A stretch of DNA of 63,814 bases, the filler included, from Dugesia japonica (Eukaryota): NCBI GenBank assembly GCA_001938525.1. It is 5 parts of 5 records of this genome, joined end to end, with 100 filler letters (N's around TTAATTAATTAA, not from the genome) between each part and the next. Parts side by side here need not be neighbours in the genome. Positions count along the whole stretch, not along the records: positions 19,896 to 33,465 come from MQRL01604146.1; 4 more parts are not named here. One strand, written 5' to 3'. A program made the translations under genes and the position numbers. Shown here one piece after another: positions 4,071-49,167 of the stretch. The notes under the pieces were generated by a model. It searched no databases and was not told where the DNA came from. It was given only the letters and a program-made list of their open reading frames with translations. How positions within the stretch are numbered: position 1 is the stretch's first letter; the number at the start of each line of letters is the position of its first letter.

Positions 4071-4232
4071 GCAATTGAACACAACTAATTTCTGTGCTCC
4101 TACTACGCTCCAGATCTCTGATATTTTGTATTATTCCGATATTGAACATTAGCAATTATTTTCCAAAATTTCTAATCTACTTATTTACTGCTTTATCAAA
4201 ATGTTTATCAATACTTGTTATTATAATCACAG

Positions 4233-16399: not shown

Positions 16400-18100
16400 C
16401 TGCTTTTCTTTACTCACTCAAGTCTCTCGAGAACACACAAACAAACCAATGTATCATCTAGAGGCATACCTAAAAACCACAAGTATTTGTGTCACCTCTG
16501 TGACATGCTCCTCATTCCACGGGTTCAGCGCGACTTTGTGGTATCGCATCTTAACTTCATTTCCCATAAACCCCAACAACAATCTCTCACATCCGCTCAG
16601 TATTTACTCCTTTTAGGCCTGCAAATTACAGCTACTATCACTATTAAAATGTTTCACAAATGATATAAATTCATTGAAAATACAGTCAAATAACATTTAT
16701 TTAATTTTTGTCTTTTTTTTACATTCATGTATCAAGATCCATGGTGTTAATTTGGCCATCCGCACTTTCTTCCGGGGTTCGATAGCTGAGCCACAATGTT
16801 TTGAGTGTTGCGAACATTTTGGACTCCCGGTCGGCATATATTTTTATCACATCGACCATCAAGCGCTTTGCCTGCTGCAGAGCCAACTCTTTCTCCTTCA
16901 ACTGCTGATATTTAGCGGTTTGTTTTTTTGCCTGTCCCTTTAGGCGAAACACCTCATTCCGGAGCTCTCGGCACCCCTCTTTCCATTTCTTCTGCATCAC
17001 TATTACCTCCTTCGTTAATATTTTAATGACTGGTGAGGGATTCACTAAAGCATAAGAAAGATTTCAATTTGACACTTCAAGCGAATGATATATGCATACC
17101 AAAAAAATATTTAAATTTTTAATCGATCAAATTATATTAGTATTATAAATAGCATTGTTCACAAACTTAAATGTAACCATTAACATTGCATCTTACTCCT
17201 ATTTGACCATCACACAATCATCTCACCCATTGAACACTACTAAAAATTCTCCTGATTTTCTTTTTATCCTGAAAGAATAATCAAACCCAAACGAAAAATT
17301 GAGAACAACAATGTAATTTCACTACTGCCTCTGCAGTATTTTTACTCTTAACCGTGACTTACATATCACACTCTTTAACTCGAAGAAATCAACAAAATAA
17401 CTAAAATTTTCAAATTCGACAATTATACTACAATAATTTTATTTGCAAAACATATTTTAATCACGGACGGAACCGCTCAGGCCCATCAAACCACGGACAA
17501 TTACCCGCTCTTCTACTTCTTCATCCACCTCGGTAGTGTTGGAGAGGGAGTGAATGCCAATTACTTACTTAGTGGTTCGTCGGAGAGCTCCTCTTTGAGC
17601 CGTTTTATTTGCGACATAAAGGACTCTAGTGCTCCTTTGATTTGACATTCGAGAGATCTAATTCGAGTATTTTTTACTGCCAACTGAAGACGGACAGTTT
17701 TGTTGTCGGCTTCCAAATTCCTAATCTCGTCGCGGTGAACTTTCGCTTAATTCTCCAACATCGTCAGTACTTCTTACCGCTCAATGTAATATCGCCCCAC
17801 CTCATCTACGTAGGACCAGATGTAATGAGGTCGTTCGAGCGTTCTCTTTTGTTTTAACATCTAAGAAATTCAAAATAAACAGTGGTTATAAATTAAAATA
17901 CGAACAGTTTGATAAAAATAATAAATGATTAATTTCATTACGATTTCTTCGGCCTGCGGCCTATTGTTTTGATTCCTCCGCTTTATAACATGAACAGAAA
18001 AGATGGTCACCCAAAGCAAACATATTTTCTCGTTCCTACTATCGATAAACTCTATTAGGAATTTCCTTAACGGTCAACACGGCCAAACGAAAATAATTTA
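16400..18100 (-). other. Unassigned multi-exon coiled-coil module, copy B
   Basis: Includes open frame 16725..17045 (EKELALQQAKRLMVDVIKIYADRESKMFATLKTL), homologous to copy A (ERDLALSQTCRAMADILKAYANRESVMIATVRTL). Same island order as copy A. Confidence 0.55.
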
Positions 18101-19895: not shown

Positions 19896-20680
19896 TTCTC
19901 TTGTCGAATGTTGAACTTGTCACAAAAAGGACATTTAAGTAGAAATTGTCCAGACAAGAAACCACCAAACATTTTTGGATGTGGTACGATTTGTCATATA
20001 AGAAGAATGTACACGCAGATTGTATGCATTAGATGTAAAGGACCAGGTTACAGAGCGGAAGAATTTTATTCGAACATTAATAAACCAAGACTAGAAGAGA
20101 GAAGATACAAATTTAAAAGCGGACCACAAACAAAAAATTGAAGCCGGACCAAACAAATTCATGCCATTCGAGAAGAATTTGAAGACGAGAATAAAGAGAA
20201 ATTTTCTATGAGCATAAAAGAAAATGAAGATCCGAGAAGAGAATATCCAAAATGCAGAGCTCCATCAGTAGAAGGGTTAGTCGAAGCCATTCNNNNNNNN
20301 NNNNNNNNNNNNNNNNNNNNNNNNNNNNNNNNNNNNNNNNNNACTAGAAGAGAGAAGATACAAATTTAAAAGCGGACCACAAACAAAAAATTGAAGCCGG
20401 ACCAAACAAATTCATGCCATTCGAGAAGAATTTGAAGACGAGAATNNNNNNNNNNNNNNNNNNNNNNNNNNAGAAAATGAAGATCCGAGAAGAGAATATC
20501 CAAAATGCAGAGCTCCATCAGTAGAAGGGTTAGTCGAAGCCATTCAATAAACAAGATGCTGTTTGATTATCCTCAGGAGGCCAAGAAATGGAATGAGATG
20601 CGCAAAGTTGGAAAAAGATATTACAGATTCCTAAAAAGTGTAAGTCTTATTGATGCGGAAGTTCATAATGCAGAGATCTA
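19896..20680 (+). pseudogene. Ty3/Gypsy gag zinc-knuckle region
   Basis: Decayed CCHC knuckles (QKGHLSRNC, CIRCKGPGYRAEEF). Nucleotide homology to 53850-54380 (AAACCAAGACTAGAAGAGAGAAGATACAA shared). Confidence 0.75.
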
Positions 20681-21445
20681 GTTTTTTTAATTTTCAAGTA
20701 ATTTCGTTGGAAATTTAAATTTTCTTTGTGGGATGATTTTTGAAAAAAAATTTTTTATTCTTATTTTTCTTTTCTCTATCTTTATTTTTAGGCGCGAAAA
20801 TTTCTTTTAAAATTTTTTAATAAGTTTATAAGTATAAATTATTAATTATTTTTATGCATTGTTTCAGTAACAGTCTTTTTTTCCTTCAATACCATTACAT
20901 TACTTCTGACATGTACAGTCCGACTGAACGAATCCATCAAGGTCTTTAGCATCCAATTCGAGTCCGTTCATAATTGAACTTATTGATTAGCTCGCGTAAT
21001 TCTAACTAGGCTAAGCTCGATTACAGTATGTAAATCTCCGGTAGCAGTGCTTCATCCGTTCACATTCGGACATAATTGAACACCACTACAATTGTTTAAA
21101 AAACAATCAGTCATCATCGTCAATTATTGACTAGACTCAGATCCGCAAAATGGTCAGGAAATTAATGGGGGAAAAACGACTTGACCCCAGTATGGTAGCT
21201 AGCTCCATGCGTAAGGCATAAGTTATTGGTAATTATAATGCCAATGTATATTAAAATAAAAATACTGGCGTCAAGTCGTTTTTTCCAATTACTCAGTATA
21301 TGTTTGAAAAAATGATAAAAATATAATATTCTTTGGGATTTTTAAGGTAAAAATTAAAAAATGACAAGAATAAAAAAATGAACGTGCTCAACATTTTTAT
21401 TAACCAGCTGAAAACTAGGGTTTAACCATTTTGTTTTTACTTAAA

Positions 21446-24400
21446 ATGTCTACTAATGAATTAACTTGTCCAAATAATCTTTGTAAAAAAGTTTTTAAAA
21501 ATAAATCAGGTCTAACATCTCATGTTAGATCGAAATGTTGTCTTTTAAACAGGGCAATGTTTACTTGTTCAAAATGTTAAAATGCTTTTAAATCTATGAG
21601 GGGATTAACAGAAAATTTGAATTCCACTAATTGTGGTAGTTCAGAAAACGTTCCGTTGTTTTGTGAAATTTGCCAAAAAAGTTTACAAGATAAAATCATG
21701 CAATAGCTCATTTTAATTCAAATAAGCATAAAGAAATGGTTAATAAAATATTATTTAATGAATTACCTGGAGAAGAAGTAGTTGATTTCAATCCAGAAAT
21801 TCGTGATATCTTCAAAATGTATCAAAAAAACTATGAAATTGAATATTTTAAAGAAAGTAAAGTTGAATTAACTAGAAATGTTGAATCCTTGGAAATACCA
21901 TTAAAATGATTAATGAATTTCAATCTGAAATCTTACAAATAATTACAAATATTTCAATTATGGTAAAAAGATTATTGTCTGAATGAATGTCAACTGTAAT
22001 TATAATAAGGAAGTAAATGGTGAAAATGTTGAAAAAATATTTAATTCGTATTCGAATAATAAACAATTTACATTAGTAAGTGAAATTAATGAAAGTGTCA
22101 TTGATATTTTAAATCAACTTTAAAGATTTATGGAAGATGAAGATAGAAATGAATCTGGATGGAATTTAAATTATAATGTAGATTTTAAAATTGAATAATC
22201 AAAATATCAATCTTTAGCTGGAGGGAAATCATCTTATCGTAAGTTATCTTTTTCTAAATCAGGAGTAATTAATATTGAAAATAAAGATGAAAAATTTTTT
22301 TATATTCAATTTTAGCACATAGATATGTATTTAAAGATCATCAAATTAGAGTAAAAAAATATATTCCTTATTTAGATGAGTTAAAAACAACTGGAATTAA
22401 ATTTCCAGTAAATATTGATGATGTAAAAAANNTTGAAAAGTTAAATGAATGGAAAATAAATGTATTTCTTGTAACTGAGTCTAAACAACTTGAACCTTTA
22501 TATATTTCACATTATGAAACTAAACCCAGAGCAGAGCAGAATAAATGTAATTTATTAGTTTATAAAAATCATTTTATTTTATGTTGAAATGTAGAAATAT
22601 GTTATACAATTAACAAAAATCAAAATCATTTGTGTATCAGATGTATGAATTGTTATGGAAGTAAAGACTTATTAATTAATCACCAAAAATTATGTATTAA
22701 TCATGAAATTAGAATTATAGTTTTTTCTAAACATTCTAGTTATTATTATCAAAATTAATATTACAAAAATAAAATATTTTTTGTAGTTTATGCTAATTTC
22801 GAAAGTTGGACTAATATAACAACCAAAAAACAAAAACCATTATCTCTTGGAATTTATATAACAAGTAAATATCAAAATTTAATTCAAAATGAATATAAAG
22901 AATTTTCAGGTGAAAGTATTCATGAAGATTTCTTTGAATTTTTAAATGAATTAAATAATAAATTAAAAGATATAAAAGAAAGTAAATTAAATCCTATTTA
23001 TATGGGTGAGAAACCAGAATTTGAGCAAGGAACTAAATGTAGATATTGTGATAAAGAGTTAACGAAAAATGAAAAACTAGTTTTGGATCATGATCACTTT
23101 AATGGGGAATTCAGAGGATATTCTCATTCAAATTGTAATTTAGAAGACAAATCAATAAAAGATTTATTTAATCCTTTTTATTTTCACAATGCTTCAGGTT
23201 ATGATAATCATTTATTTTTTAAAGAATTAATTAGTAAATATCCAGGTAAAGTTAAAAAGATAATTCCACATACTGATGAAGTTTATATTTCTTTTCAATA
23301 TGAAAGTATTAGATTTTTAGATTCAGCAAGAATGTGTACACAAACTTCAGTAGAGAAAATGGGTGAAACGTTAAATGAATCAGGAAAATATAATCATTTA
23401 AAAACATTTAATTTAAAACCAAAGAAAATACAATTTCTTTATGAATATGTTAAAGGAGAAAATATTAATCAAGTTATTGAATTATTAAAAAAAGAAATAG
23501 TTCCTGAGAAACAAGATTTTTATAATATATTAAGACAAAAACAAATAACTGAAAATGATTATAATGAATTTTTACTAGATTTTAGTAACTTTAATAATTT
23601 ATTTGAATATATGTTACATTATATGAAACTAGATGTAAATACTTTAGCTGATTACTTTGAAAATTTTAGAGAAAAATGTTGAAATAATTATCAAATCGAT
23701 CCAAGTTATTGTTATTCAGCTGCAGGATTAACTTGGAATGCAGGTATGAAATTTACTCAAGTAAAATTAAAATATGCACAAAAAGAAACTTATGATAGCT
23801 TTATTAAAATTGAAAGAGGAGTTAGGGGTGGATATTCTGGTGTTTGTGGTGAAAGACAAGTATTTTCAAATAATCAAAAATCTAATAATAGATTTAAAAG
23901 AACTAGACAATTAAATAAAGCACAAGTTGGAGATATATTATTTTCATTAATTAAAAATAAAATTCCACCAGTAAATTGGAAAGAAGAAACATTTTTAAAA
24001 TATTTAGATGAAAATTCTGTGTATGCTAGTTGTATGACAAAACCTTTACCAACAGGTGAAATCTATAATTTTAAGGATTTAATTTATACTAAATCAACTA
24101 AAGATATTAATTATGTTTATGAAGTTGATTTGGAATATCCAAAAGAAATTCATGAAAAGACTAAATACTTTCCTTTAGCACCAGATCCTTTAAATATTAC
24201 AAAAACTATGTTAGCACATTATCAATTATCATTTAACAAGAAATTAAGTAAGAAAAATACTAAATTAACATTGAATCAATTTGATAAACAAAATTATATT
24301 ATTTTAGGAAGTACTTTAGATTTATATNTNTCTNTAGGAATGAAAATTAAAAANATNCATNCNAAATATAAAATGCCNACAAAACCTTGGTTAAAAGATT

Positions 24401-25252
24401 ATATAGAATTTAATATCAATCAAAGAAATGAAGCTAAAAGAAATAACGATGTTTTTTGGTATGTATTCTTTAAATTATTAAATAATGCTTTTTATGGAAA
24501 AACATTAGAAATCATATATTAGGTGTAATGTTGAAATTGTAGAATCAGATAAAGATTATCAAAAATTCAGCAGTAAAATTAATTTTAAATCTAGTAAAAT
24601 ATTTACAGAGAAAGAAAATGGTGAAGCAGAATCAGCAGCCGTTCATCTTATCAAAACAAAATTAAAATATAATAAATTTCCTTACATAGAATTTACTATT
24701 TTTGAATATGCAAAAGAAGTTAAATATGGTTTTATTTATAATCAGATGGATAAAGAAATTCCAGGAAAGTATAAAATACATTATTCGTATACAGATTCAA
24801 TTTTTGTAGAAATAATTGGTCAAAAAAATTTAAATAAATTAACAAGTTTATTAGGTAATAATTTGTTTCAAATGAAAGATGAGAAACCAAATAATGAAAT
24901 AGCTAAATGTAATTTTATAAAAGCAAGGAGTTATATAATTGAAGACCGTAGTAAAAATATTGAAACTAAACATAAAGGTGTTTCTAAAACTAATAAAATA
25001 GGAATGGAACATTATGATAAAGTTTTAAGTAACCCTAAAGAAAATATTTATGGAATAAATTATAGTTTAAAATCGAAAAAACATGAAATAGAATTAGTGG
25101 AACAAAAGAAAATAGCGTTAACAGGTTATGGTGATAAAAGATTAATAGAAGAAAATGGAATAAGTACTTGGCCACATGTTAATAAGTACAAATGTTCAAA
25201 GTGTAATCAATGGCATTTAAGATTAGATAAATTATTAGGGAAAACTTGTTAA
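21446..25252 (+). pseudogene. pPolB: Protein-primed family B DNA polymerase with N-terminal zinc fingers and an HNH/endonuclease VII insert; multiple stops and frameshifts
   Basis: N-terminal CPNNLC..H and CEIC..H..H fingers; ESGWNL; VINIENKDEK; ExoI VYANFES; CRYC..LDHDHFNGEFRGYSHSNCNL; ExoII FHNASGYDNH; ExoIII LDVNTLADYFENFRE; RGVRGGYS; motif A YLDENSVY; motif B KLLNNAFYGK; motif C YSYTDS (first Asp lost); KHKGV; DKR. Confidence 0.95.
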
Positions 25253-25341
25253 TTTCAAAAGAAATAAAGTTGATAACCTCGGTCGTCGATTTAAAAAACA
25301 AGTTAGAAGTTTAATAAACTCTAATTTTTCAACTTGTTAAA

Positions 25342-25602
25342 ATGGCTGCTAGAGAAAACATAAGTGTAATTATTGAAGATGTAAAAAAAGATACAGAGTT
25401 TATGAAAGATTTAGAACAAGATTATAATAAAATTATAAATTACTCGTTAAAAGAACAAAGTATATTTTTAAAAGATATTTATCCTAGATTTAGAATATTT
25501 AAACAAGCAATTAGTTTAGCTGGTGAAAAAATTAGTAACCTCAAAAAAGAATTAGAAAATAAAAAGAGTGAATTAGAAAACATAGTAAAAAGATATCCAT
25601 AA
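25342..25602 (+). CDS. Maverick small coiled-coil ORF (86 aa), function unknown
   Basis: Intact ORF with AAAATG start directly downstream of PolB; heptad-rich C-terminus. Confidence 0.55.
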   Translation: MAARENISVIIEDVKKDTEFMKDLEQDYNKIINYSLKEQSIFLKDIYPRFRIFKQAISLAGEKISNLKKELENKKSELENIVKRYP

Positions 25603-25668
25603 AACCAGTTTTTTCTTTAATTTATTTATAACTTTCTGTTGTTCTATAATTTGTTCTTCAAGTTTCTT

Positions 25669-26243
25669 TTATAAATCACTTTCAATTTTTTCGTGGGAAA
25701 TTAAATCTTTAACTTGTTTTACTATATATTTGCTTATTGATATTTCTTCAGCTGTTAAAAGATTGTCAGATAAAGCTTTTTGCTGAAATAAAAATAATTT
25801 ATTTTTAACAGTTTCTAACTCATGAATTAAATTTTTATACTTTTTCTTTTTTGCTTTTATTAAAGATGAATTCAAAGTACCAATAACTGGAATACAAGAA
25901 ACTACACTAGTTAAAAAAATTGGAATTAATCCTCCAACACCTAAAGTTCCTAAAGAAATTAATAAAGTTCCAGTTATTCCAACACAAGTTATAATAAATA
26001 TTTATGTAAATCTAATCGAAGTATCTAACCTTGACGATCTTTTATAAATCTTTTTATAATGCTTAATTTTATCATCAATGAAATAAAGATCTGATTCAAA
26101 ATCTTCAATTCTTAAACTTGATAATCTAGTTTTTAAATCTTGAATTGTATATTTGTGATCTTTATAAATATATTTTTCCAAGTATAGATATTTTTTAAGG
26201 GACCCTTCGGATGGGACCCTTCGGGATTTAAATCTTCTTTCAT
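25669..26243 (-). pseudogene. Conserved Maverick membrane protein (hydrophobic hairpin plus KALxD..xEE tail; GasderminX-like)
   Basis: Extended translation YKKIYKRSSRLDT..ILLITCVGITGTLLISLGTLGVGGLIPIFLTSVVSCIPVIGTLNSSLIKAKKKKY..QKALSDNLLTAEEI, with one stop and a frameshift. Confidence 0.55.
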
Positions 26244-26256
26244 TTTATTAAAAGAT

Positions 26257-26668
26257 TAATTTGAAATTGTAATATTATCAATATAAATATTTGCTGGTAA
26301 AATGAAAGTAATTCTTTCTATTGGTTTATATTTCCCTACATTTATTCCAAGATAAAATATATTTTTTTAGTAAAATTAAATTCATGTTCTTCTTGATTAT
26401 TATTAATTGCTATATAGATTTTTAAATAAATAATATCAGTATATCCATTAAATAAAAAATTTACTTGTTCTAATTGTTTTTTAAAATAAAAATAAAGTTC
26501 TAATGGTTCTTCAAGAAAATAATATTTATATGGTTTTACTTGGGGCACTCCGTGAATATTTTTTAATATTCCTTTTCTTTTTATTTTAAATGGTGTTGTT
26601 CCAGAATGATATGGTAATTCATTCTTTGTTAATAAAGTAGTTAATTTAAAAAGTATTTTTGGATTCAT
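26257..26668 (-). pseudogene. Maverick ORF of unknown function (beta-rich, frameshift near the C-terminus)
   Basis: ORF 26342..26668 plus a shifted continuation GKYKPIERITFILPANIYIDNITISN*. Confidence 0.4.
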
Positions 26669-26714
26669 TATATTTATTTTATTAGCGTAAAGAAAATAAT
26701 TATCAATTATTTCT

Positions 26715-27054
26715 CTAATCTTGTTTAGGATTTGATGGGTGTTGTTTTATTTTCATAATAAAATCATTAATTTCAATAACACGATCATTGTGAAGATCTT
26801 GTTTTATTTTAATAAATTCTTCTTCTAAAGGAACTAAAGGATTATTTAACAATTCTACTTTTTGTGATAGTTTTTCTAATTCTAAATTAATTTTATTAAA
26901 TTTTTCAGGCAAACAAGTACTTGATAAATTATTAATTTCTTTTGTTAATATTTCAATTTCTTTTTTAAAATTATTAATATTTTTATTAGTATTCACTTGT
27001 GAATTTTGGATAATATTTCTTTTAATTATTAAATTACTCTTTGATCTAATCCAT
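26715..27054 (-). pseudogene. Maverick coiled-coil ORF
   Basis: Open frame 26715..26996 with heptad repeats. An ATG at 27054 is followed by stops. Confidence 0.4.
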
Positions 27055-27065
27055 GATTTATTATT

Positions 27066-27335
27066 CTATAAAAGTTGTTGAATATAAATATTTAACTCTC
27101 TAATCGTTTGTTTTAATTCTGATACTTCTTTTTCCAATTTATTAAAATATTTTAAATTAACTGCATCTAGTTCGTTTTTAGGTTCATTAATAATTTTCAA
27201 ACAAGTAATTGAATCTCCACTTTCATTAACAAACCTAGATTCATTATTAATAGATTCTAATTTTAATTTAGTAGAAACATGTTTTAATATGTTTATATTA
27301 TTTTGACTATTTAAAGTTTCTCCACAAAAATTCAT
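27066..27335 (-). CDS. Maverick small ORF with a fibre/stalk-like motif (89 aa)
   Basis: FVNESGD..PKNELDAVNLKY followed by a coiled coil resembles the P-x(4)-DAVN-x-x-Y neck motif of trimeric fibres/adhesins. The ATG directly abuts the protease stop (TAAATG). Confidence 0.5.
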   Translation of the reverse strand: MNFCGETLNSQNNINILKHVSTKLKLESINNESRFVNESGDSITCLKIINEPKNELDAVNLKYFNKLEKEVSELKQTIRELNIYIQQLL

Positions 27336-27833
27336 TTATTTATTAAATGGGTTTTTATAAGGGTTTTCAAGTAATTCTTTAAAGGTTTCGTATAATTCAT
27401 TTATTATTTCTTCAAATGTTTTAAAAGAAAGTGAATATAAAAAATATAAACTCAAGACTCCACAAATACTTGTTCCAAAAGGTTAAACTTGAATTTCATT
27501 ATAAACATTTACATATTTTTCAATTTCTTTAAAAGGTTTTAATCCATAAGAATCAAAATAAAATCCAGAAGAAAAAGCAACCTAATGAGTTCCTTTTTGA
27601 TTGGAATTTTGATAATTAATAATTATTGGTGCCCGCGTGAACCACTTATCTTTATTTAAAACATAAGGGAAAGCGTCACGCGTGACGCTTAATTCACCTT
27701 TCATTAATACTTCTAGTTCTAAATTTAAAAAATCAGCAATAGAATACAAATTAAAATTAGTTTTTGTATTTATTCCAAATGTTTTTAAAAAGTCTAGGAC
27801 TCCATAAGATTTCTCTGAGTTTACGTAAGGCAT
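27336..27833 (-). pseudogene. Adenain-like cysteine protease (virion maturation protease)
   Basis: Reading through two stops gives IINYQNSNQKGTH*VAF..YFDSYG..YNEIQV*PFGTSICGVLSLYFL, with the His-Asp-Gln-Cys catalytic order. Confidence 0.9.
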
Positions 27834-28497
27834 TTTCTAATATGAACTAATAAAGAAATAGTTTGTCCATTAAAGTCTATAGGATTATTATTTTCATCTA
27901 TAATATTAAATTTTAAAGAATCAATACGTTTGGAATTTAATCTTAAATAAATTGGTGGATAAATTCTTTCTTTAAATTTAAAACCAAAACCAACAGAATT
28001 TACTGGAAAAGAATATAATAAATTCATTGGTATGGCTTGACCGTTGGTATTGATATAATTACCTTTAACTAAATTAAAAGTTATATTTATCATATTAATA
28101 TTTAAAATATCAATTTTATTTTCAGAATAATATTTTCCAATTGAATACTGGTTAGGTAAAAACCGAAAATTGTATGAAAAAAAGATTTGCAATCAAATTT
28201 AATTGTATTTTCTTTTATATCTAAATTACATTTTGTTGTTGATTGATCTGCTGTAACTTCAATTTTATACTTTGATAGTTTATTAGATATTTCTTTTATT
28301 TCATAAGCACCTGGTTCTATAGTTATTAATTTATCATTACAGTAGAAACTATTGTTTTTATTAATTACATTAAAAATAATATTATAACAACTAAAACATA
28401 ATAATCGCATTGCATATTCTGAATCTAATTCTATTGGAAATCTTAAATTAACTTTAAGATCAGACTCTTTACCAACAACTAAAAATTGATGAGACAT
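27821..28497 (-). pseudogene. Minor capsid protein (penton), one frameshift
   Basis: MSHQFLVVG..FPIELDSEY..IEPGAYEIKEI..IFGF joined to PIYLRLNSKRIDSLKFNIIDENNNPIDFNGQTISLLVHIRK, a typical Polinton penton pattern. Confidence 0.85.
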
Positions 28498-28522
28498 TTT
28501 ANNNNNNNNNNNNNNNNNNNNA

Positions 28523-29343
28523 TTTATTTTTATAAACATTATACTTTTTATTAGTAATTAATTCCTGTTTTAATAATTCTTTACAAACAGATTTAAAATC
28601 TTGTTTTAAATTATTATGTCAGGCTTTTACAGCTGAAATTAATAATGGTAATCTTTCAAACAAAGAAACTGGATCATGATTTAAACCTTCGCCTATAATT
28701 GGAATTTCTTTTTCAATTATATTTTCAATAGGTTTTTTTTCTTCAATTACTTTTTTAAGTTTATGTATTTTAGTAGTTCGCTCTTGTTTTTTAACTTTTT
28801 TAGGATCTTTTTTTCCAAGTAATGAATCACGATATCTAGAATTAGATGGAAATGTAATCTTTAATTTATTTAAATAAATATCAAATGCTTCTAAATCATT
28901 ACTTTCATTTCCCAAAATTAAATTCATTACTTCTTTAGAATATGGTATTACTTCTTCTTTAGATAAAAATTATTTCTTTCCATCTTCTTCAAATAAATAT
29001 AATTCTTTATTAGGATAACGTCTCTTTAGAAAGTTTTTATTATCAATATTTTCTATTTCAAATGTTGGTGTAATTGTTTTAGATAAATTATCACTATTTA
29101 AATTATTTTTTGGAAAGAATAGAATTATTTTTTTAAAGGGGTTTGTAGGTTTATCATCATTCAAATGAGTTTGTAGATATTTTACCTTAACTTTCAACTG
29201 CTTTAATTATATTGAATAGTTAAATCAGTTTGTAAAGTTCTTGCTTCAATTACATTCCCAGTAAATAAATTATCATAATTATCTTGAGCTTTAATTAATT
29301 CTTTTAAAAGTTTTATTCTTTCTATTATTTGTTCACTATCCAT
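28523..29343 (-). pseudogene. Conserved uncharacterised Maverick protein (C-terminal DP-x-x-L-x-x-RL-x-LL motif)
   Basis: GEGLNHDPVSLFERLPLLISAVKA*HNNL resembles the GxG..DPNELVERLRLLxASxxAGN tail seen in invertebrate Polintons. Broken into ORFs 28619-28927 and 28970-29197. Confidence 0.6.
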
Positions 29344-29344
29344 T

Positions 29345-29869
29345 TTATTTAGGATTTTCATAATGATTTTTAAAAGGTTTTAAATATAAACCATCACTTT
29401 TTATTTCAACTTGTATCCCATTTTTAAAATTTTTAGTTATAATTTTCAACTCTGAATTATCTAAACTATTTTTTAAATATTTATGAATCGCAGATCCTTG
29501 ATATGGTTTTAAATAAAGTCCTGAACCATCTTTTTCTAAAGCTTTTTTCTGTAATTCTACTAATTCAATTTCTTTTTGCTTTTTAATTTTTTGCAGAGCT
29601 TGTGCTTGAGCAGATCTTAAATTACTAACAGTTGATGCTATTCCAGCTGTAGAAGCTAAACCAGCAATTATACCAGGAATTGCAGCTAGAAAAGCAAATC
29701 CACCACTTTTCGTTTGAGCTTCGCGACCTTCGTGTTCTTTAACCATTTTCTTTTTTATTTCTTCTTTAACTTTTTTTCCAATCCAATAGTTTTTTCCATT
29801 AATTTTTACAGATTTGCTTTTTTTTGAATTTATCAAATCAATTAATTCTTGTTCTGTTATGGAAGTCAT
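29345..29869 (-). CDS. Putative virion core / membrane-active precursor protein (pX-like), intact, 174 aa
   Basis: Basic N-terminus, then SGG|FAFLAAIPGIIAGLASTAGIASTV amphipathic segment, coiled coil, and two GLYLKP(Y/F) repeats. Confidence 0.7.
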   Translation of the reverse strand: MTSITEQELIDLINSKKSKSVKINGKNYWIGKKVKEEIKKKMVKEHEGREAQTKSGGFAFLAAIPGIIAGLASTAGIASTVSNLRSAQAQALQKIKKQKEIELVELQKKALEKDGSGLYLKPYQGSAIHKYLKNSLDNSELKIITKNFKNGIQVEIKSDGLYLKPFKNHYENPK

Positions 29870-29874
29870 TTTAT

Positions 29875-30670
29875 TTACTTATATTTTCAGTCTTCAAACA
29901 ACTTATCAATTAAAACTTCAGCTTCTCTATCTAAATAATAATAATTATACTTTGTTTTTCAGTGTAAATTAACTTCATAATCATATTCCATTTTACTGGA
30001 AAATATGTTACTAAATAAATCATAATAAACATTATTTTATCAGTTTTGTTTAATTTGAAAAATATAAAACAATTGGAATTATTTCTAATAAAGTTTTTGT
30101 CTAAATGATAATAAGTTTGTGAATTATAAATTACATTACAATTAACATGTCTACCTCTAGTAAAATAAATTTTTTGTACTTCTTGATTTTTTTCATTAAC
30201 AACATCATCAAAAACTATTAAATTCTTTTTATCCTTAGATAATTTATCACAAGGAATAATTTCATTTGGTTTATTACTTAAAATTACATTTATAGGATAA
30301 GGACTTTTTTCAAATTTTCTTTTTATGGGACCTTTTGGGATTGAATATTTTTTAATATACAATTGAATTACTTCTAATGGAAATATTAAAGAATCAGGAA
30401 TTATATTTTGATATTCAAAAATAAAAATAATATCTTCTTTTGTTAATCCATTTTCGAAACCATGATAAAGTAATTATAATTCAAATTGATTTATTGTAGT
30501 AGAATAAATTATTAAAGTTAATAATCTAAAAACTTGGGAGTTCATAACATTTTCATTAATAAAACATTTTCACCCGATCCAGAAGAACCAATTATTAATA
30601 ATCTAAAATTAGATGGAAAGAGTTTATTATTAAAAATATTTTTATTTTTATTCCATATGAGCTGCGTCAT
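29875..30670 (-). pseudogene. A32/FtsK-type genome packaging ATPase
   Basis: Degenerate Walker A LIIGSSGSGEN, Walker B LIVFDDV, FTRGRHVNCNVIYNSQTYY and IRNNSN; frameshifted. Confidence 0.9.
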
Positions 30671-30687
30671 TTTTATTAAATAAAAAA

Positions 30688-31023
30688 TTAATATTTATTA
30701 CCTTTTTCTTTTATGTAATCATTAGTTAATTTACTAACACTCATATTTAATAAAGCTAAATTTGGCATACCCATGTTTATAAAATTCATGTTATTGTAAA
30801 ATTGAATTTCATCTATTTGTTCTTTTGACATGTATTCAGAAGTATCAGTAGTTAACCACTTCAGAAATGTTTTAGGTTTTTTGTCTTCTTTTTCTTCTTT
30901 TAGCTCTTCTTTTTCTTCTTTTTCAATATTAATTTCTTGTAGTTCTTTCTGGTCACAAGCGTTATTAAGTTCCTTCTGGTCATTATTTTCTTTTGATTTT
31001 TTAGAATTTTGTGTATTTCCCAT
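30688..31023 (-). CDS. Maverick ORF (111 aa), charged, with an MGN N-terminus
   Basis: Intact ORF with TAAAAATG start, MGNTQNSKKSK, and an E/K-rich middle. Confidence 0.6.
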   Translation of the reverse strand: MGNTQNSKKSKENNDQKELNNACDQKELQEINIEKEEKEELKEEKEDKKPKTFLKWLTTDTSEYMSKEQIDEIQFYNNMNFINMGMPNLALLNMSVSKLTNDYIKEKGNKY

Positions 31024-31224
31024 TTTTATATTTTTATTAATTTAAAATTTATAAAAATTAAAATATATAATCAGAAGTTATTTTCTCCATAAAGAATTTT
31101 TTTAAATCTACTTTTTGTGTATAGAAATCATCTGTTAATATATTGGGTAATTTATTTACTACTAAATTATACATTCCAATACTATTTGGATCCATATTTT
31201 TAAAATTAAAAATTTTAAAATAAT

Positions 31225-31551
31225 TAATCAAAATTGAAGTTTTTTTTATTTAATTCTTCAATCTCTTCATTTAATTCTTCAATCTCACCATCAACATATT
31301 TCTTTTCTTCATCAGTAGTATCCATAATTAACCACTTCCAAAAATATTCTGGTGGATTTTTTAAATTTACAGTTGCGAGAGTTTTTTTTAAGTATTTATT
31401 TTCTTCTGAATATTTAAGAATTTCTTTAAATTTATCATTAACAATTTCTTTAAATTCTTATATTAACTCTTCTTTTCATTCTTCTTTAAAAGCTTTTTTT
31501 CCCTACATTTAGAGCACTTTTAAAAAGAAAATCAAAAGAATTATCACTCAT
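31225..31551 (-). pseudogene. Maverick ORF, coiled-coil, two internal stops
   Basis: MSDNSFDFLFKSALNVGKKAFKEE*..PPEYFWKWLIMDTTDEEKKYVDGEIEELNEEIEELNKK. Confidence 0.5.
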
Positions 31552-31632
31552 TTAATTTATTATTTTTTAATTTATGAAAAATCTGTTATTTCCAGAAATT
31601 ATGATAATCCCCACCAATAACAAAATTATATA

Positions 31633-31857
31633 CTACGAATTTAATACAATTCTACTAAACCAATCCAAATTATCATCAGTAAAATTTCTATTAATATAAA
31701 TTAATAATTTACTTATTTCTGTTATTGCTTTATTATTCTTTTCTCTATCATTATATCTATTATTAACATAATCTAAAACAAGCTGTGGTGTGATTATGTT
31801 TAATTTTTCTTTTGGTGATTCATTTAAAATTTCTTGTAGAACACTTTTATCAGCCAT
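31633..31857 (-). CDS. Maverick small ORF (74 aa, possibly truncated by a premature stop)
   Basis: AAAATG start immediately after the integrase stop; helical composition. Confidence 0.45.
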   Translation of the reverse strand: MADKSVLQEILNESPKEKLNIITPQLVLDYVNNRYNDREKNNKAITEISKLLIYINRNFTDDNLDWFSRIVLNS

Positions 31858-31881
31858 TTTTTTAATTTATTAATTATAAAT

Positions 31882-33172
31882 TTATAAAACCGTTTTCTGT
31901 AATTCATTATCATAAAATCTACCTAGAATCTTTTTGTTTTCTAAATCAGTAATTCCATAAGTAAAAGGTTTCGTTTTATATACTTTTGTTATTGTAAATA
32001 TTTCATTTGTCCATTTAGCTGTAAAACCTTTTTCAAATTTGTATTTATATTTAAAGATTCTAACTCTGTCTCCAATTTTAAACTTTTGTTTAAAGGATAT
32101 TGAATCATTTTTATGGTTGTGATCTTTGATTATCTCTTTTATGCTTTCAGAATTTTCTCTAGCTTCTTTTGGAGTTGTTTTTATACTAGAATGAATTGTA
32201 TTATTATAATCATTTACAATCTTTTGTAATAAATTATTATCATATTTCTGGTTACCTATTAAAGTAAAATGTTTAAATAATTCATTTTTAAATGTTTAAT
32301 TAAATCTTTCTATGACTACCTTCGTTTTCAGTTGAATATAAATTAATTTCATTTTCCTTACAAAAAGATTAAAATATTTTATTATAAATTTCACTTCCTT
32401 TATCAACCCATAAATTATTTGGAATTCTATTATTGTCTTCAATTATATTTTCAAATGCATTTGTTATTGCTTGGCCTGTTTTATTAGTACATATTTCTAC
32501 AAATGCAAATCTAGAATATAAATCGATAACTGTTAGTATTATTTTCTTATTTGGCATAAAAATTAAATCTGCAGACCAAGTTTCATCAATTTCTTTTATT
32601 ATTACTTTTAGAAAATGTTTTGGTTTTCTATATTCTTTATGTAATTCTTTGGCACGAAGTTCATTTGCTAATATTTCTTTATTTGAACTTTCACCAGATC
32701 CCAACATAATTTTACCTTTCATTGCTAATTTTACTAAAATTCTTTGTATTTTTTCTGAAATACTAGGATTAGGAATATTATTTAAATCATGAATTAAATT
32801 AACATCAGCTAAATGTCTATCTCTAATATTTTCAGATTTATAAGATAGATCATGTTTTAAAGCTGCTTCATCTACTCTATTAATTGGTTCTTCTCCAGGT
32901 TTTGGAATATTATTTTTGTCTAATCTTAAATCTAATCTTGTTCCTGGGCCTGTATAATTATGTTTAAATAAATGTCTTTCACCTAGATACTTTTTCCAAG
33001 TAAATGGTTTTAAAATTGTTGAAGTAAAAATTTAGAAGATTGAAGATCACCTCCCATTTGAGCTACGCGATCACCACCCAATTTTATTTTACATATTTTG
33101 AAATGTCTAGCTTTATTTTTTCTAAGTAATATTTTATTGCAATATTCACAAACACTTTTATTTTTTATCCAT
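31882..33172 (-). pseudogene. Zinc finger - parvovirus-type phospholipase A2 - retroviral-like (rve) integrase fusion gene
   Basis: CEYC..RHFKIC finger and GGD repeats, then after a frameshift HNYTGPGT..PINRVDEAALKHDLSY..RHLAD (PLA2 Ca-loop, HD dyad). The same frame continues without a stop through MKGKIMLGSG to ELHK..WSADL..LTVIDLYSRF..WVDKGSE, then frameshifts to IERFN..YNNTIHSSIKTTP..FKIGDRVRI..FEKGFTAKWTNEIF..GRFYDNELQKT*. Confidence 0.88.
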
Positions 33173-33213
33173 TTTATTTAAAATCGAAATATGTGATTTT
33201 TTAAACTTAAACT

Positions 33214-33465
33214 CTAAACATAACTTTCTCCTCGTTTATTTTCAATCATTAAAATTTTACTATTTGATAATTTCATTTCAATATGTTTTTCTTCTAAAAT
33301 ACACCAACATAAACTATCTTTAAAATCAGTATCTTTAGTTATATGTAAAGTTATATTTACTGTATTAATATTTAATTTATCATCTTGGGAACTAACATCA
33401 AAACAAAAGATTGGGTATAAATTATCAAACTCTTGTAAAGATAATTGTGGTTCTGTTAAAAAGTC
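33214..33465 (-). CDS. Major capsid protein (double jelly-roll), C-terminal 83 aa only
   Basis: Open frame DFLTEPQLSLQEFDNLYPIFCFDVSSQDDKLNINTVNITLHI..WCILEEKHIEM matches the Polinton MCP C-terminal P-I-F-x-F-D-V-S-x-Q pattern. The rest is lost at the spacer. Confidence 0.75.
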   Translation of the reverse strand, partial: DFLTEPQLSLQEFDNLYPIFCFDVSSQDDKLNINTVNITLHITKDTDFKDSLCWCILEEKHIEMKLSNSKILMIENKRGESYV

Positions 33466-33565
33466 NNNNNNNNNNNNNNNNNNNNNNNNNNNNNNNNNNN
33501 NNNNNNNNNTTAATTAATTAANNNNNNNNNNNNNNNNNNNNNNNNNNNNNNNNNNNNNNNNNNNN
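33466..33565. other. Artificial scaffold-joining spacer
   Basis: N44-TTAATTAATTAA-N44. Confidence 0.95.
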
Positions 33566-34150
33566 CTTGACGTTTTCTTTGAAGTGAAAATTAGTCTAAA
33601 TTTATTATCATCAAAATATTTCATGAGAGAGCATTTTAGGGATTTAGATCCTTCCGAGAATGGTAGTTTTATAGTTATTTTTTCTTGATTATTTTTAATG
33701 TTTTCTTCTTGGTCATTATTTGATTTTGAGCACAGTTTGTTTAGAGTACTTTTTATATTATTGTAAATCATTTTTTGATTATATCCATTAGCTCGAAGAA
33801 TACTATCTAATTTATTAAGACCATCATCATCAATCTCAAAGCTTGATGATATACATCACACTCGATGGACCAAGACTTTTATTAATTCATTCTTATATCG
33901 ATCATCTCAAAAAACTTTAGCAGTGATATAAAGTCCTATGTCTGTCGATTTTTTATAAATTGAAGTATTATAGTTGCAACCCTGTTTACAAACAAGAACA
34001 TCTAAGAATGGTTTTATTGGATTAATTACGTAACAGGTTTATTGGCCAGTGTATAAACAATTTCCGTCTTATTTTACCGCAGTAACTGATGATGGACATA
34101 GATTTGTCCGAAACATGTATTACAAATAAATATTTTAAAAAATTGCGTTT
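33566..34150 (-). mobile_element. Penelope-like retroelement: RT C-terminal/thumb fragment (-) joined to an inverted pseudo-LTR (+)
   Basis: The - strand gives PFLDVLV..TSIYKKSTDIGLY..LIKVLVHR..NGY..ITIKLPF. The + strand 34020-34150 has a hammerhead core, AATAAA and a (TA)n end. Confidence 0.8.
34082..34123 (+). ncRNA. Minimal type I hammerhead ribozyme
   Basis: GTAA-CTGATGA-T-GGACA-tagatt-TGTCC-GAAA-CATG-TA-TTAC: intact CUGAUGA and GAAA cores, 5-bp stem II, palindromic ACATGT stem III, GUA cleavage triplet, 4-bp stem I. Confidence 0.8.
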
Positions 34151-42019: not shown

Positions 42020-43669
42020 ATTTAATTTGAGTAAAATAATCGAAAAAATTTTTTCGTTTTAAAGTTAAAGAACTATCACTGAACGCTATTCTCACATGCC
42101 TAACTACTTCTGATAATTTCCCTTCAATGTTATATCCTCCTCTTCTGATTTACGTGCAGGTCTAGAAGCTATGGTATATAAAAATATACCTAAATAAGCT
42201 AACACAGTGCGAAAACTTGTTTTGGAATATAGCAATGTTAGAAATTAAATAATAAGTGAATTAGCTGAAAAAAAGATTAGTAGTCAATTTGTAGATGAAA
42301 GATTTTCTTTATCTTTTGATGAATGGACATCTCTACGAAATCGACACTATCTAATCTATCAAGACAAAATTCTAATTTTTGGAGATTAGGTTTGGCAAGG
42401 ATATACCATTGATAGTGGTCCGATTCATGCAAGGAATAAAACCGAAGTTTATATTGGTCCACTAATAAATAATGTATGAAAAATCATATCAATGTTTAGA
42501 AAGTCATCGACAAAGAATGATATATTAAAACAATATATCAAAAACGAATTTTGCAAGGATGTTGCTTTATTAAAAGACTGCAAGACTAGGTGGGGCAGTT
42601 TTCTATTAAGGCTAGAACGTTTTTATTTCCTAACAGATTGCATCAAAAAGACTTTAATTGATACAAAAAATAAAGACGAGTTACTAGATTTATCTCATGA
42701 TAAAAATCAAATGTTATTTGATATAATTAATGCGCTTGTGCCAATAAAAACAACTGTTGAAGCACTCTACTGGCAATATAGCAATCTGTTTACAGCTGAT
42801 ATTGTCTTTAATTCTATGCTAAATAAGCTTATAGATGCAAACAGTGCTATAAGTAAAAAATTATATGCATCTCTCAGACTTCGAATGGAAGAACGCCACA
42901 CAGATTTTAGGGGTTTACTTCAATACTTACATAATGCTAAAAGCAGCGTCTCGGGAATTGATTTTGTTACAGTTCCCTCTTCAATAAAATGCTGTAGGAG
43001 CAACCAGACGCTTCAAATCCCACTGCATTACGAACGTCTAATGGAAGTTTCAATTAAAATTGATTCAAAATTTAATTCAATGATTGAATCAGATTGTACA
43101 TAGAGACCATTAAGTTTAGCAGAAGAACTAGATAAAGCTATTAAAGAGGGATATGTACCAATGTAGCCTGTTTAATTTGAAACACTGTCATCAAAAATTC
43201 AGAGAGAAATGACTCTTTATGAGAATGGAGGAAGACGNGGTGATGATCTGGAAAGAACATATTTCTATCTAATGATAATAAAGCCAACCAGTGTCAAGCC
43301 AGAACGATCCTTTTCTTCAGCTACTAAAAATATGAGGCCTTTTAAATGTTAAAACCTTGAACGCATTATGTTTTTTAAAAGGTCATCTTCAGAAATAAAG
43401 GAAATAAAAAATTTTTTGTCAAATTTCATCATTTATTGTTTTTTATTTTTTTTATGGTGAAATAAAAATTGTTTTAATAAAATATTGTAATCAAATGAAT
43501 TTTTAATAGACTTTGGGGAATTATTATTCTATTTTAAATATGATACCGTTTAAGTGGAATTCATTTAAATTAAATTTCTAAGCCCGAGACTAAACCCGAG
43601 ATCCCGGGATTTGAAAAATAGAATCGCAACATACCGGGTTTGAAAATATGATGCGCTATTGCAATCTCT
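42020..43669 (+). mobile_element. hAT transposon (transposase pseudogene plus 3' TIR), lacking its BED finger in this orientation
   Basis: SFDEWTS (catalytic Asp), DCKTRWGS, IKPTSVKPERSFSSA (dimerisation domain), CCCGGG subterminal motifs, and terminus ATTGCAATCTCTA ending at 43669. Confidence 0.88.
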
Positions 43670-43855
43670 ACTTCCCACTTTAATTTTATGCACCGAGAAA
43701 AAATGCCTATGAAGGCCCTTCACGGAACCTCCAGCAATTCTCCAAATTTTCTGACAGTCTGAATATTTACATTTATTTGTCTGTCCATCTTCCCCCATTA
43801 AAAAGTGTTGCCAAATATATGAAGTACCCTTTGATAAATATTCTTTGTAAGCCAT
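43670..43855 (-). pseudogene. hAT transposase N-terminal BED zinc finger
   Basis: SYIWQHF..KCKYSDCQK..GGSVKGLHRHFFSVH (W-x-x-F, C-x4-C, H-x4-H). Confidence 0.85.
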
Positions 43856-44869
43856 GGGGTTAAAATTAATTTTAAAAAACCTAAAATTTTTAAGAGTAAC
43901 ATTAAAAATACAGAATAATTTTAATAATTTTTAGTTTAATGGTTGGAATTTAAAACAAAAAATAAGTAATTGATACAGACATTTTATACATGAGATAATT
44001 TCTACTAGTTAATTTATATAATTTACAACAAATTTAGATTTGAATTATTAATTCCTGACTTATTCTTCTAAAAACTTAAAAACACTTAAATATATATTAT
44101 GCTGTTAATTTAATTGTAATCATAATATTAATTGAAGAGTTTTTGTATGCAGCTATTATAATTGTACACAGAATTGTACCGTAATCTTTAAAGTAAATTA
44201 TTTTGGTTTAATATACTCTCTGTACAATAAAATATTTAGCCAACGGATGATTTTTTGCCTTAAAGTTAATGCTCAAGCATTATTTTATAAAACATTTTAT
44301 CGCATGCTGTTTTTTTAATCTTAATAGTTTTTTATGTACTTGTTGGATTTAGGTGGTTTGTGGCTATCGGAAGAGGCAAGATGAAGGAGGAAAAGATGAC
44401 TTAATTTTATGANTTTTTTGATTAATTTGATTGGTTAATTTTTGTAAGTAGTATATTAGGGTTAAAAATATTTTTCCTTGGGGGGGGAAAATATTTTGTT
44501 GAAAAAGTAATTAATTAATTGACTTAAGATTTAAATGAATTTTGTCTGTAACGTATGGGTGATGTAAAGATTTTTTGAAAAATTATGTTCTTTTAATAAA
44601 AATGATGTTTTATTAAGAAAATAGATGTATGTTTGGGCAGTCTTGATATGTTCCGTGCAGTTTAAAATTCCCAAGCACGTTTCGCTGTGTTGTTGTCGTG
44701 TTGAATGCCTAATAAAATAATTAAGAAAAACTATTTGCTCTAAGAAACATTTATTATTTATGAAAAAACCTTATTATTTTAGTATTTATTAAAACCTTAG
44801 TAATTTACTATTTATACAAAAAATTAATAAAAAAAAAGAACAATTATCCAGTAAAACATTTTTTCTTAG

Positions 44870-47908: not shown

Positions 47909-48448
<540 letters not shown>

Positions 48449-49167
48449 TAATTAGACTAATTTATTATTGCGAATACATTTTTTTCAATAAAATCAATCA
48501 ATTTAAATTAATCATTATATTCCGATCAATTAATAATTAATTAATATCTAAAGGCAATTAATGATAAATAATTTTAGTGGAAATTACTAATATTGTATTG
48601 CAAATTCAAATGAACTCTAATCAATAATTGATTAAATATTTTCAAATATTAAATTTTTAAATAGTATATTAAAAAATATACGTAAGCTAAATGATAGAAT
48701 TATTTGGATAAATCATATTTTATTAAATTTTTTATGACATATTTAAAGAGTCGCTGGAGACTGTTTAGAAAATCTTATTTTCATTTAAATCTATTGAATA
48801 CAGAATTTGTTTGACTAACATTTAATTGAGGTGAATAAGTGTTTTAAAAAATAGACAAACATGATTGTATTAGAGAAATTAATATTTTTTATAATATCAT
48901 AAATAATTAGTTAGAGTTTCAAATCTAAAATTATCTTTTTTGATAATGTACAATTAACGATCAATGATTTTTAAAATCCAAATAAATACTTGATACCGTT
49001 ATAAAATAAGGAAATAGTTGAATAGGGAATTTCATGAATCGAATCTCTAGATAATTATAGTTTAGCAATTACAGTTTAAATGTATTTTTCCCAGAAATTA
49101 ATAACTAATTCAATATATTATAAGTAAACTTTCATTTTCTGCAAAAATTAGCGTTTATGTACCCATA

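Follow-up and report, generated by a model that had tools for sequence, protein, structure and literature searches.

Results

Gene content and layout of the element

The DNA studied here (the window) is a stretch of 63,814 nucleotides from Dugesia japonica. Its 21.2–33.5 kb region, which belongs to MQRL01604146.1, is a decayed, integrated Maverick/Polinton (Polintoviricetes; adintovirus-type), an identification about which we have very little doubt. The gene set comprises a protein-primed DNA polymerase B (pPolB), an A32 ATPase, an adenain-like protease, a penton, an rve integrase and a double-jelly-roll capsid gene (Table 1). PolB and a small second ORF lie on the plus strand and converge on some 13–15 densely packed minus-strand genes, and the GC skew flips sign at about 26 kb. 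This layout agrees with the original prediction, which had PolB converging on about 14 genes of the opposite strand and named the Polinton/Maverick gene set; PolB, ATPase, integrase, protease, penton and capsid were all recovered by profile or homologue matches. The fragmentation of the genes by stops and frameshifts was likewise borne out, as breaks were mapped in each hallmark gene wholly in view (PolB, protease, ATPase, penton and PLA2–integrase). Since all five are broken, the present copy cannot act alone. Decayed copies are commonplace (96% of vertebrate Maverick loci, according to the accessible text of PMC8097293), and the locus in itself is an ordinary genomic fossil.

Table 1. Features of the element, with positions along the window.
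Feature	Position	Strand	Condition	Basis or remark
Short inverted repeat, 25-nt arms, 92%	21169..21286	.		Upstream of PolB; E 3e-4
Protein-primed DNA polymerase B (PolB)	21446..25252	+	Broken	C2H2 fingers N-terminal, Endonuclease VII/HNH insert, polymerase motifs
Small ORF, no assignment	25342..25602	+		Downstream of PolB; profile/phmmer searches
Two-transmembrane SLATT-like gene (family f15; weak assignment)	25669..26244	−	One in-frame stop	iE 0.002; phmmer E 0.0014
ORF, no usable match	26342..26746	−		Profile, Atlas and phmmer searches
Two in-frame ORF pieces, no assignment	26715..27335	−		Downstream of protease
Adenain-like maturation cysteine protease	27336..27836	−	Two in-frame stops	His, Asp and Cys motifs; iE 8e-17
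Penton (single jelly-roll minor capsid protein)	27821..28500	−	One frameshift	Profile and homologue fold
Conserved Maverick gene, family f8	28538..29342	−	Several in-frame stops	iE 1.5e-8 for 28538–28810; upstream extent inferred from frame
ORF with pX-like core segment	29345..29878	−	Open	Homologous to C-terminal 'X' half of PLA2X in other Mavericks
A32/FtsK-type packaging ATPase	29931..30694	−	One frameshift, two stops	PF04665
ORF with Met-Gly start, no assignment	30688..31041	−		Profile/phmmer searches
Two short ORF pieces, no assignment	31058..31457	−		Profile/phmmer searches
Small ORF, no assignment	31633..31866	−		Profile/phmmer searches
Single PLA2–integrase gene	31882..33177	−	Two frameshifts, two stops	
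Double-jelly-roll major capsid protein (MCP), C-terminal ~75 aa	33214..33465	−		Homologue matches, PF21738
N44–linker–N44 gap, 100 nt	33466..33565	.		Interrupts capsid gene, removes right end

Seven ORFs or ORF pairs stayed without a usable assignment in profile and phmmer searches, in line with the many unassigned ORFs noted before. An Atlas search of the window ORFs gave leads below 0.9 or none, and Rfam and tRNA scans gave no matches. Viral-contig scans produced matches with alignment queries and none with single-protein queries. The earlier suggestion that the host lineage is poorly sampled held in part: undersampling is unproven, since sequencing runs from 11 studies exist for the organism, including seven RNA-seq runs of 2026, whereas the viral proteins are indeed distant from anything found, the best identities being 41% for PolB, 59% over 71 aa for the MCP and 61% for PLA2–integrase.

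PolB carries at least four in-frame stops and two frameshifts within 22151–25177, the span to which a 1248-aa relative aligns (tblastn, E 6e-163), and one of its pieces matches PF03175 (E 2e-9). Its N-terminal region, interrupted by one stop and one frameshift, aligns with residues 189–340 of protein P0001; this stretch may correspond to an OTU-like domain. The Endonuclease VII/HNH insert was rejected as a special trait of this polymerase, the motif being present in 32 of 43 relatives. The short inverted repeat upstream of PolB may lie within the left terminal region. The boundary at 21160 given by the original prediction is not an established one, as a search of the window for a TIR partner, a long inverted partner or an AGTAGT-type end belonging to the left side gave no match. 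No TIR pair or 6-bp TSD is visible in the window either, and the right end is lost at the contig end.

Among the minus-strand genes, the protease family profile matches ASFV S273R (E 3e-9) and the adenovirus protease (E 3e-6), and 6 of 13 aligned protease rows match Peptidase_C5. The penton gave profile matches with iE 2e-20 and 3e-15, and the predicted model (pLDDT 88) of its homologue from the related locus L002 matches the mavirus penton (E 7e-11; VIA Z 13.4, rmsd 6.0, 234 aligned). The PF21738 cut-off was passed by all eight capsid homologues tested. Both the capsid and the penton fold are supported, in agreement with the original prediction. The description "near-complete, with the full virion module" proved too generous, because the capsid remnant comprises the last ~75 of ~430 residues: the window lacks about 80% of this gene, as well as the right terminus and whatever lay upstream of the gene.

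Family f15, to which the SLATT-like gene is weakly assigned, is common to related elements, and a SLATT_4 cluster score of 0.79 (Atlas) serves as a lead only. The ORF pieces downstream of the protease occupy, by synteny only, the slot of a fibre-like gene in relatives; phmmer gave no support for reading 27069–27335 as fibre-like. The Met-Gly start of the ORF next to the ATPase may be a myristoylation site. The pX-like ORF matches the tails of PLA2 ORFs at five loci (L020, L115, L028, L026 and L004; E 6e-4 to 5e-3), while its L002 homologue matches Adeno_PX at E 0.008, under the cut-off, and a PDB search with it returned chance matches only.

PLA2 and integrase in one gene

A feature that the original prediction had overlooked is that PLA2 and integrase lie in one reading frame. 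The order along the gene is a Zn-finger-like N-terminus, a GG dipeptide, a parvovirus-type PLA2, a G-x-G-like motif and an rve integrase without chromodomain. The junction falls inside one open frame (32372–33031), and PF08398 and PF00665 match on one stop-free piece. Both domains were in frame in 18 of 29 matches (36–61% identity) to a two-domain query run against candidates of 386–2000 aa, a search directed at proteins with both domains; 17 of the 18 cover 87–99% of the query, and one of them, P0175, aligns along the entire broken gene (E 5e-141). In a tree that took in 18 of 47 unfused integrases, both window integrase pieces nest within a 16-member clade of fused proteins (SH-aLRT 99), as sister to P0175 and P0186 (support 97). 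Because so many matches carry both domains in frame and the window integrase nests among fused proteins, the fusion is, judging from these sequences, almost certainly ancestral and not a product of decay.

Three loci (L001, L002 and L039) group with the fused protein P0201 (support 100) and have PLA2 immediately upstream of integrase in a different frame, with a chromodomain-like tail kept. A programmed −1 shift is possible at the L001 and L039 junctions; for L002 it finds no support, the −1 frame being closed just upstream of the integrase motif. In the window gene and in 16 of the 18 fused relatives the last integrase motif is followed by 5–20 aa, whereas all six unfused integrases compared have a tail of 43–53 aa, and no Chromo match was obtained in any of the four fused proteins searched. 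The model of an integrase homologue matches PFV integrase (E 5e-14). The His-Asp pair of PLA2 is retained, by pattern, in 17 of the 18 fused proteins. Across 108 loci examined, none of 12 PLA2 ORFs is fused in frame to integrase and two are fused to protease, indicating that PLA2 fuses promiscuously. We found no description of a PLA2–integrase fusion in the literature, including the accessible parts of PMC3671162, PMC8502044, PMC11296320, PMC8097293, PMC4642659, PMC7805220 and two preprints; figure gene maps, slide supplements and Repbase lay outside this search and may record one.

Glycine motifs on either side of PLA2

A GG dipeptide precedes the PLA2 PGT motif by 28–48 aa in 11 of 16 fused proteins, as against 0.86 expected, and is missing in five (two of the 18 were dropped, their N-terminus being too short); the window gene has the GG too. 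A glycine (G-x-G-like) motif closes the PLA2 domain in the fused proteins. It also occurs in stand-alone PLA2 proteins and may be structural. In the predicted model of P0175 both glycine sites fall within low-confidence linkers or next to them (residues 28–48 and 153–161), and with a pTM of 0.47 the model does not fix the domain arrangement. Taken together, the conserved GG and G-x-G-like motifs that flank PLA2 in flexible linkers suggest a precursor that is cleaved by protease and packaged in the virion.

Discussion

The element resembles several known systems, as far as the accessible parts of their descriptions reach. With animal Mavericks/Polintons that bear the PLA2-containing 'group 2' morphogenetic module (PMC8097293; 10.64898/2026.06.19.733378) it shares pPolB, rve integrase, A32 ATPase, cysteine protease, double-jelly-roll capsid, penton, PLA2 and a SLATT-like gene, together with the two convergent gene blocks, and it is degraded like most genomic copies; it differs in that PLA2 and integrase form one gene, and the best relatives are 41–61% identical. 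The Alpha (Mayetiola-class) adintovirus module with PLA2X (PMC8502044; 10.1101/2024.03.25.586562) has the same parvovirus-type PLA2 and pX-like segment and is also animal-associated, but in the window the pX-like half has an ORF of its own (29345–29878) and PLA2 is joined to integrase instead. The C-terminal integrase chromodomain, distinctive of adintoviruses in these two sources, is missing in the window; mixed Alpha/Beta adintovirus pairings are already described. The mavirus virophage (PMC6048507) has the same penton fold and would be alike in its workings, with rve integrase and a lipase-type hydrolase packaged in the virion and a GG|X / GX|G protease; it differs in encoding integrase and hydrolase by separate genes, its hydrolase being of the α/β type and not a PLA2. 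The metagenomic PLA2–rve proteins P0175–P0190, P0201 and P0202 have the same domain order and junction as the window but lack a known genome context, and L001, L002 and L039 keep the order in different frames.

The mavirus protease has GG|X and GX|G as its cleavage sites, and in mavirus virions the rve integrase and a cleaved α/β hydrolase occur as separate proteins, as described in the accessible part of PMC6048507; PLA2 is virion- and entry-associated according to the parts available of PMC8502044 and PMC4642659. Our overall explanation, towards which we lean somewhat, is that the locus is a decayed Maverick with a single PLA2–integrase gene, whose product was likely a protease-cut precursor carrying integrase into the virion. 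Its mechanistic core, drawn from sequence motifs and analogy, has in our judgement a little less than an even chance: the ancestral Zn-finger–GG–PLA2–G-x-G–integrase precursor would enter the virion through its PLA2 part, and the adenain-like protease would then cut it and free PLA2 for membrane passage at entry. This processing would also release a genome-bound integrase, ready to integrate once the virus has arrived. Such delivery would loosely resemble the Gag-Pol delivery of retroviral integrase.

The strongest competitor holds that the fusion was inherited but is no device for packaging or cleavage. PLA2 would then stay attached, acting for instance in dimerisation or as a membrane or chromatin tether that replaces the lost chromodomain, or the fusion would be a neutral merger of adjacent genes in a compact genome. 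This reading gains from the coincidence of chromodomain loss with fusion, as seen in the short ends of the fused proteins, from the two other loci at which PLA2 is fused to protease, and from the PLA2-end motif being present in stand-alone PLA2 too. We nevertheless regard it as less likely, since the GG enrichment fits the protease sites of related viruses and the PLA2 His-Asp pair is so widely retained.

A truncated fossil that truly ends within the capsid gene, with no continuation into unassembled sequence, appears rather improbable. The sequence past the 33466–33565 gap is indeed unrelated to the capsid gene, and 11 capsid homologues used as queries gave no match anywhere else in the window. 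However, the break falls exactly at a 100-nt linker gap of a type found five times along the window, and the capsid remnant is free of stops across the 71 aligned residues up to that gap. A free virus or a contaminant, placed in the animal assembly by scaffolding, is a highly improbable source of the 13.6-kb contig (19896–33465). The contig does lie between linker gaps, and the animal-gene exons in the window (an ELAV/Hu-type RRM, E 8e-21, and FAM92, the latter with matches in two relatives at 73–79%) are on other contigs, but the interruption of every hallmark gene wholly in view by stops and frameshifts is incompatible with a replicating virus, and the contig runs on into a zinc-knuckle repeat, of which a 70–77% copy lies at 53929–54384. 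Least credible of all is an origin of the PLA2–integrase open frame in the decay of this copy, for instance through a lost stop between two genes: the copy is heavily mutated and L001, L002 and L039 have two ORFs in different frames, but 18 independent clusters (36–61% identity) share the in-frame junction and the window integrase nests among their kind.

Beyond the single locus, we tentatively propose, at a slightly lower confidence than the packaging mechanism itself, that a widespread, undescribed Maverick lineage rebuilt PLA2X: PLA2 may have moved onto the integrase, with loss of the chromodomain, and a Gag-Pol-like precursor may load the integrase into the virion, to be released by the viral protease, while some relatives may use a −1 shift at an A-run. 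PF08398 together with PF00665 and no chromodomain offers a simple marker for this lineage, which is now annotated as 'hypothetical' or 'transposase'. Whether animal Mavericks travel in virions, and by what route their integrase gets into a new genome, is an open question on which the conserved fusion of PLA2 and integrase has a bearing; it becomes testable through an integrase that is tied to a protein presumed to serve virion entry, with protease-type sites flanking it. If the proposal is true, the fusion would amount to evidence, at the level of sequence, that the particles of animal Mavericks contain integrase and that integration takes place on entry, as in retroviruses.

An in-frame PLA2–integrase gene and its ancestry

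A parvovirus-type PLA2 (E 5e-9) and an rve integrase core (E 4e-7) lie together in one stop-free piece of the element, a shared frame that the original prediction missed. When candidates of 386–2000 aa only were scored with a query spanning both domains, 29 matches were obtained; 18 contain both Pfam domains (36–61% identity), and the remaining 11 (P0191-P0200, P0203) are Lottia gigantea proteins of 387–805 aa that have PLA2, lack an integrase and share 52–66% identity with the PLA2 of the window. The fused protein P0175 aligned over the entire gene (33153–31891, E 5e-141), and a quick integrase tree (38 rows) nested both window integrase pieces among 16 fused proteins that form a clade (SH-aLRT 99), with the sisters P0175 and P0186 as closest kin (support 97). 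Because of these 18 fused relatives, the full-gene alignment and the position inside the fused clade, the fusion is, as judged by sequence comparison, inherited.

In the related loci L001–L108, the 12 PLA2 ORFs include two in-frame fusions with the maturation protease, in opposite domain orders, and none with an integrase. Three others (L001, L002 and L039) overlap an integrase ORF in the −1 frame; these three loci group with the fused protein P0201 (support 100). The integrase frame has no Met ahead of the conserved motif in L002 and L039, A-runs of 7–9 follow the PLA2 end in L001 and L039, and the −1 frame of L002 is closed just ahead of the integrase motif. Mutation, assembly (homopolymer) error and programmed shift are all possible explanations of the overlap.

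Fused integrases stop 5–20 aa past the last conserved motif in 16 of 18 cases (the other two were unmatched by the pattern), and so does that of the window; all six unfused integrases have a chromodomain-like tail of 43–53 aa, with a Chromo match in L002. A passage in 10.1101/2024.03.25.586562 gives the C-terminal chromodomain as distinctive of adintovirus integrases. Canonical PLA2X is described as PLA2 plus a pX-like tail (PMC8502044). In this element PLA2X appears to be split: PLA2 is joined to the integrase and the pX-like part forms an ORF of its own, which resembles ordinary PLA2 ORFs of L020, L115, L028, L026 and L004 in their C-terminal half (E 6e-4 to 5e-3). A homologue of it matches Adeno_PX weakly (E 0.008).

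Features of the window and of related loci (locus positions where a locus is named)
Feature	Position	Strand	Remarks
PolB	21446–25252	+	DNA_pol_B_2 E 2e-9 on one piece; at least 4 stops, 2 frameshifts
PLA2–integrase	31882–33177	−	2 stops, 2 frameshifts
Stop-free PLA2–integrase piece	32372–33031
ATPase			2 stops, 1 frameshift
Penton			1 frameshift
Protease			2 stops
pX-like ORF	29345–29878	−
Met-Gly-Asn-Thr-Gln-Asn-Ser ORF	30688-31041	−
Capsid piece	33217–33465
Left hairpin	21169–21286		25 nt
FAM92/CIBAR-type host exon	4227-4829
Coiled-coil ORF piece	16725-17063	−	112 aa
Left repeat	19896-20680		internally duplicated
Copy of left repeat	53929-54384		70–77%
ORF piece past the gap	33566-33855	−
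Decayed DNA-transposon pieces	42480-43930; 50488-51432
ELAV/Hu-type RRM1 host exon	47909-48451		E 8e-21
PLA2–protease fusions	L004:10187-11251; L049:230-1996
−1 overlaps	L001:7990-8060; L039:1560-1620; L002:2885-2920

Gene content and classification

All six hallmark genes are present, in agreement with a Maverick/Polinton. PolB does face a convergent block of about 13–15 (−) genes, and the GC skew changes sign at about 26 kb. Another PolB piece matches Endonuclease_7 (E 1e-7), and a C2H2 finger lies at the N-terminus. A query in which one stop of the gene was replaced by X matched 189 of 4778 candidates (best 41% identity, next 34%); the few matches from named organisms are all arthropods, and the closest relative aligns across 22151–25177. 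The HNH-type insert is common, its motif being present in 32 of 43 relatives (see 10.1101/2023.08.22.554363 and PMC11161782).

Family profiles built from the 108 related loci identified the ATPase, penton, protease, integrase, PLA2 and capsid genes, along with two conserved families of unknown function. The protease profile matches ASFV S273R (E 3e-9) and adenovirus protease (E 3e-6). The predicted model of the intact L002 penton homologue (pLDDT 88) matches mavirus penton (E 7e-11) and adenovirus penton bases, with VIA Z of 12.6–14.3 against PBCV-1, mavirus, Sputnik and adenovirus entries. Failure of profile searches to recover capsid and penton folds had been named as counting against the identification; PF21738 was recovered in capsid relatives and the penton family model matches known pentons, so the identification came through this test. 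Pfam and Atlas searches and a comparison against 4473 ORFs from 151 loci left seven ORFs or ORF pairs without assignment. The start of one unassigned viral ORF, Met-Gly-Asn-Thr-Gln-Asn-Ser, presumably fits an N-myristoylation pattern, and the product may act on membranes as an internal protein of the virion.

We place the element among the PLA2-bearing Mavericks/Polintons (described in 10.64898/2026.06.19.733378). Narrower adintovirus descriptions include PLA2X and a C-terminal integrase chromodomain, whereas neither was found in this element. Mixed Alpha/Beta adintovirus pairings are already known (10.1101/2024.03.25.586562).

Completeness, decay and surroundings

The capsid piece yielded 39 relatives, aligned only to their last ~75 residues (best full-length relative 429 aa, 59% over 71 aa), and all eight tested relatives passed the PF21738 cut-off. 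Since 11 capsid homologues searched over the window gave no match outside this piece, the element lacks, at the gap, about 80% of its capsid gene and its entire right end, and "near-complete" with a full virion module was an overstatement. The left side shows only a hairpin; neither an AGTAGT-type end nor an inverted partner for this side was found in the window. Scored against intact relatives, five genes are broken by stops or frameshifts, as had been noted, and no open frame exceeds 307 aa. The element is thus a non-autonomous fossil, the state in which loci of this kind are usually found, 96% of those in vertebrates being degraded (PMC8097293). The locus is genuine and unremarkable as a fossil, and it falls short of the completeness first claimed.

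The window is AT-rich animal DNA, with two host exons and transposon debris. It has five 100-nt N44–linker–N44 gaps, and the element's contig (19896–33465) lies between two of these. Left of the element lies a zinc-knuckle repeat, which we take to be Gypsy-like. The ORF piece past the gap, with no match in Pfam, presumably resembles the C-terminal region of a Penelope-type reverse transcriptase. One decayed DNA-transposon piece is a BED finger with a hAT-like ORF (weak Pfam match) and the other presumably a Tc1/mariner-like ORF. The coiled-coil piece, without clear family, is probably a host exon. Public runs from 11 studies under the organism label do not suggest an obscure host.

Possible role of the fusion

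GG occurs shortly upstream of PLA2 in 11 of 16 fused proteins, versus 0.86 expected, and a glycine motif lies at the end of the PLA2 domain. The PLA2 His-Asp pair is kept in 17 of 18 fused proteins (by pattern), and the integrase acidic motifs are retained. The predicted P0175 model (pLDDT 76, pTM 0.47) places GG and the glycine motif within or next to linkers of low confidence, and its integrase portion has a match in foamy-virus integrase. Passages in PMC6048507 report GG|X and GX|G as cleavage sites of the mavirus protease, and the presence in mavirus virions of two separate proteins, the rve integrase and a cleaved hydrolase. We tentatively infer that the fusion may be a precursor coupling integrase packaging to the entry lipase: the integrase would be packaged into the virion by attachment to PLA2, and the precursor would be cut at maturation. 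The main rival, a permanent or neutral fusion, seems rather unlikely to us; in its favour, the glycine motif closing PLA2 also occurs in stand-alone PLA2.

Full-text searches and term look-ups in individual papers turned up no description of the PLA2–integrase fusion, although figure maps, slide supplements and Repbase may record it. The gene architecture to which the locus points is conserved and apparently undescribed, and its proposed mechanism is testable.
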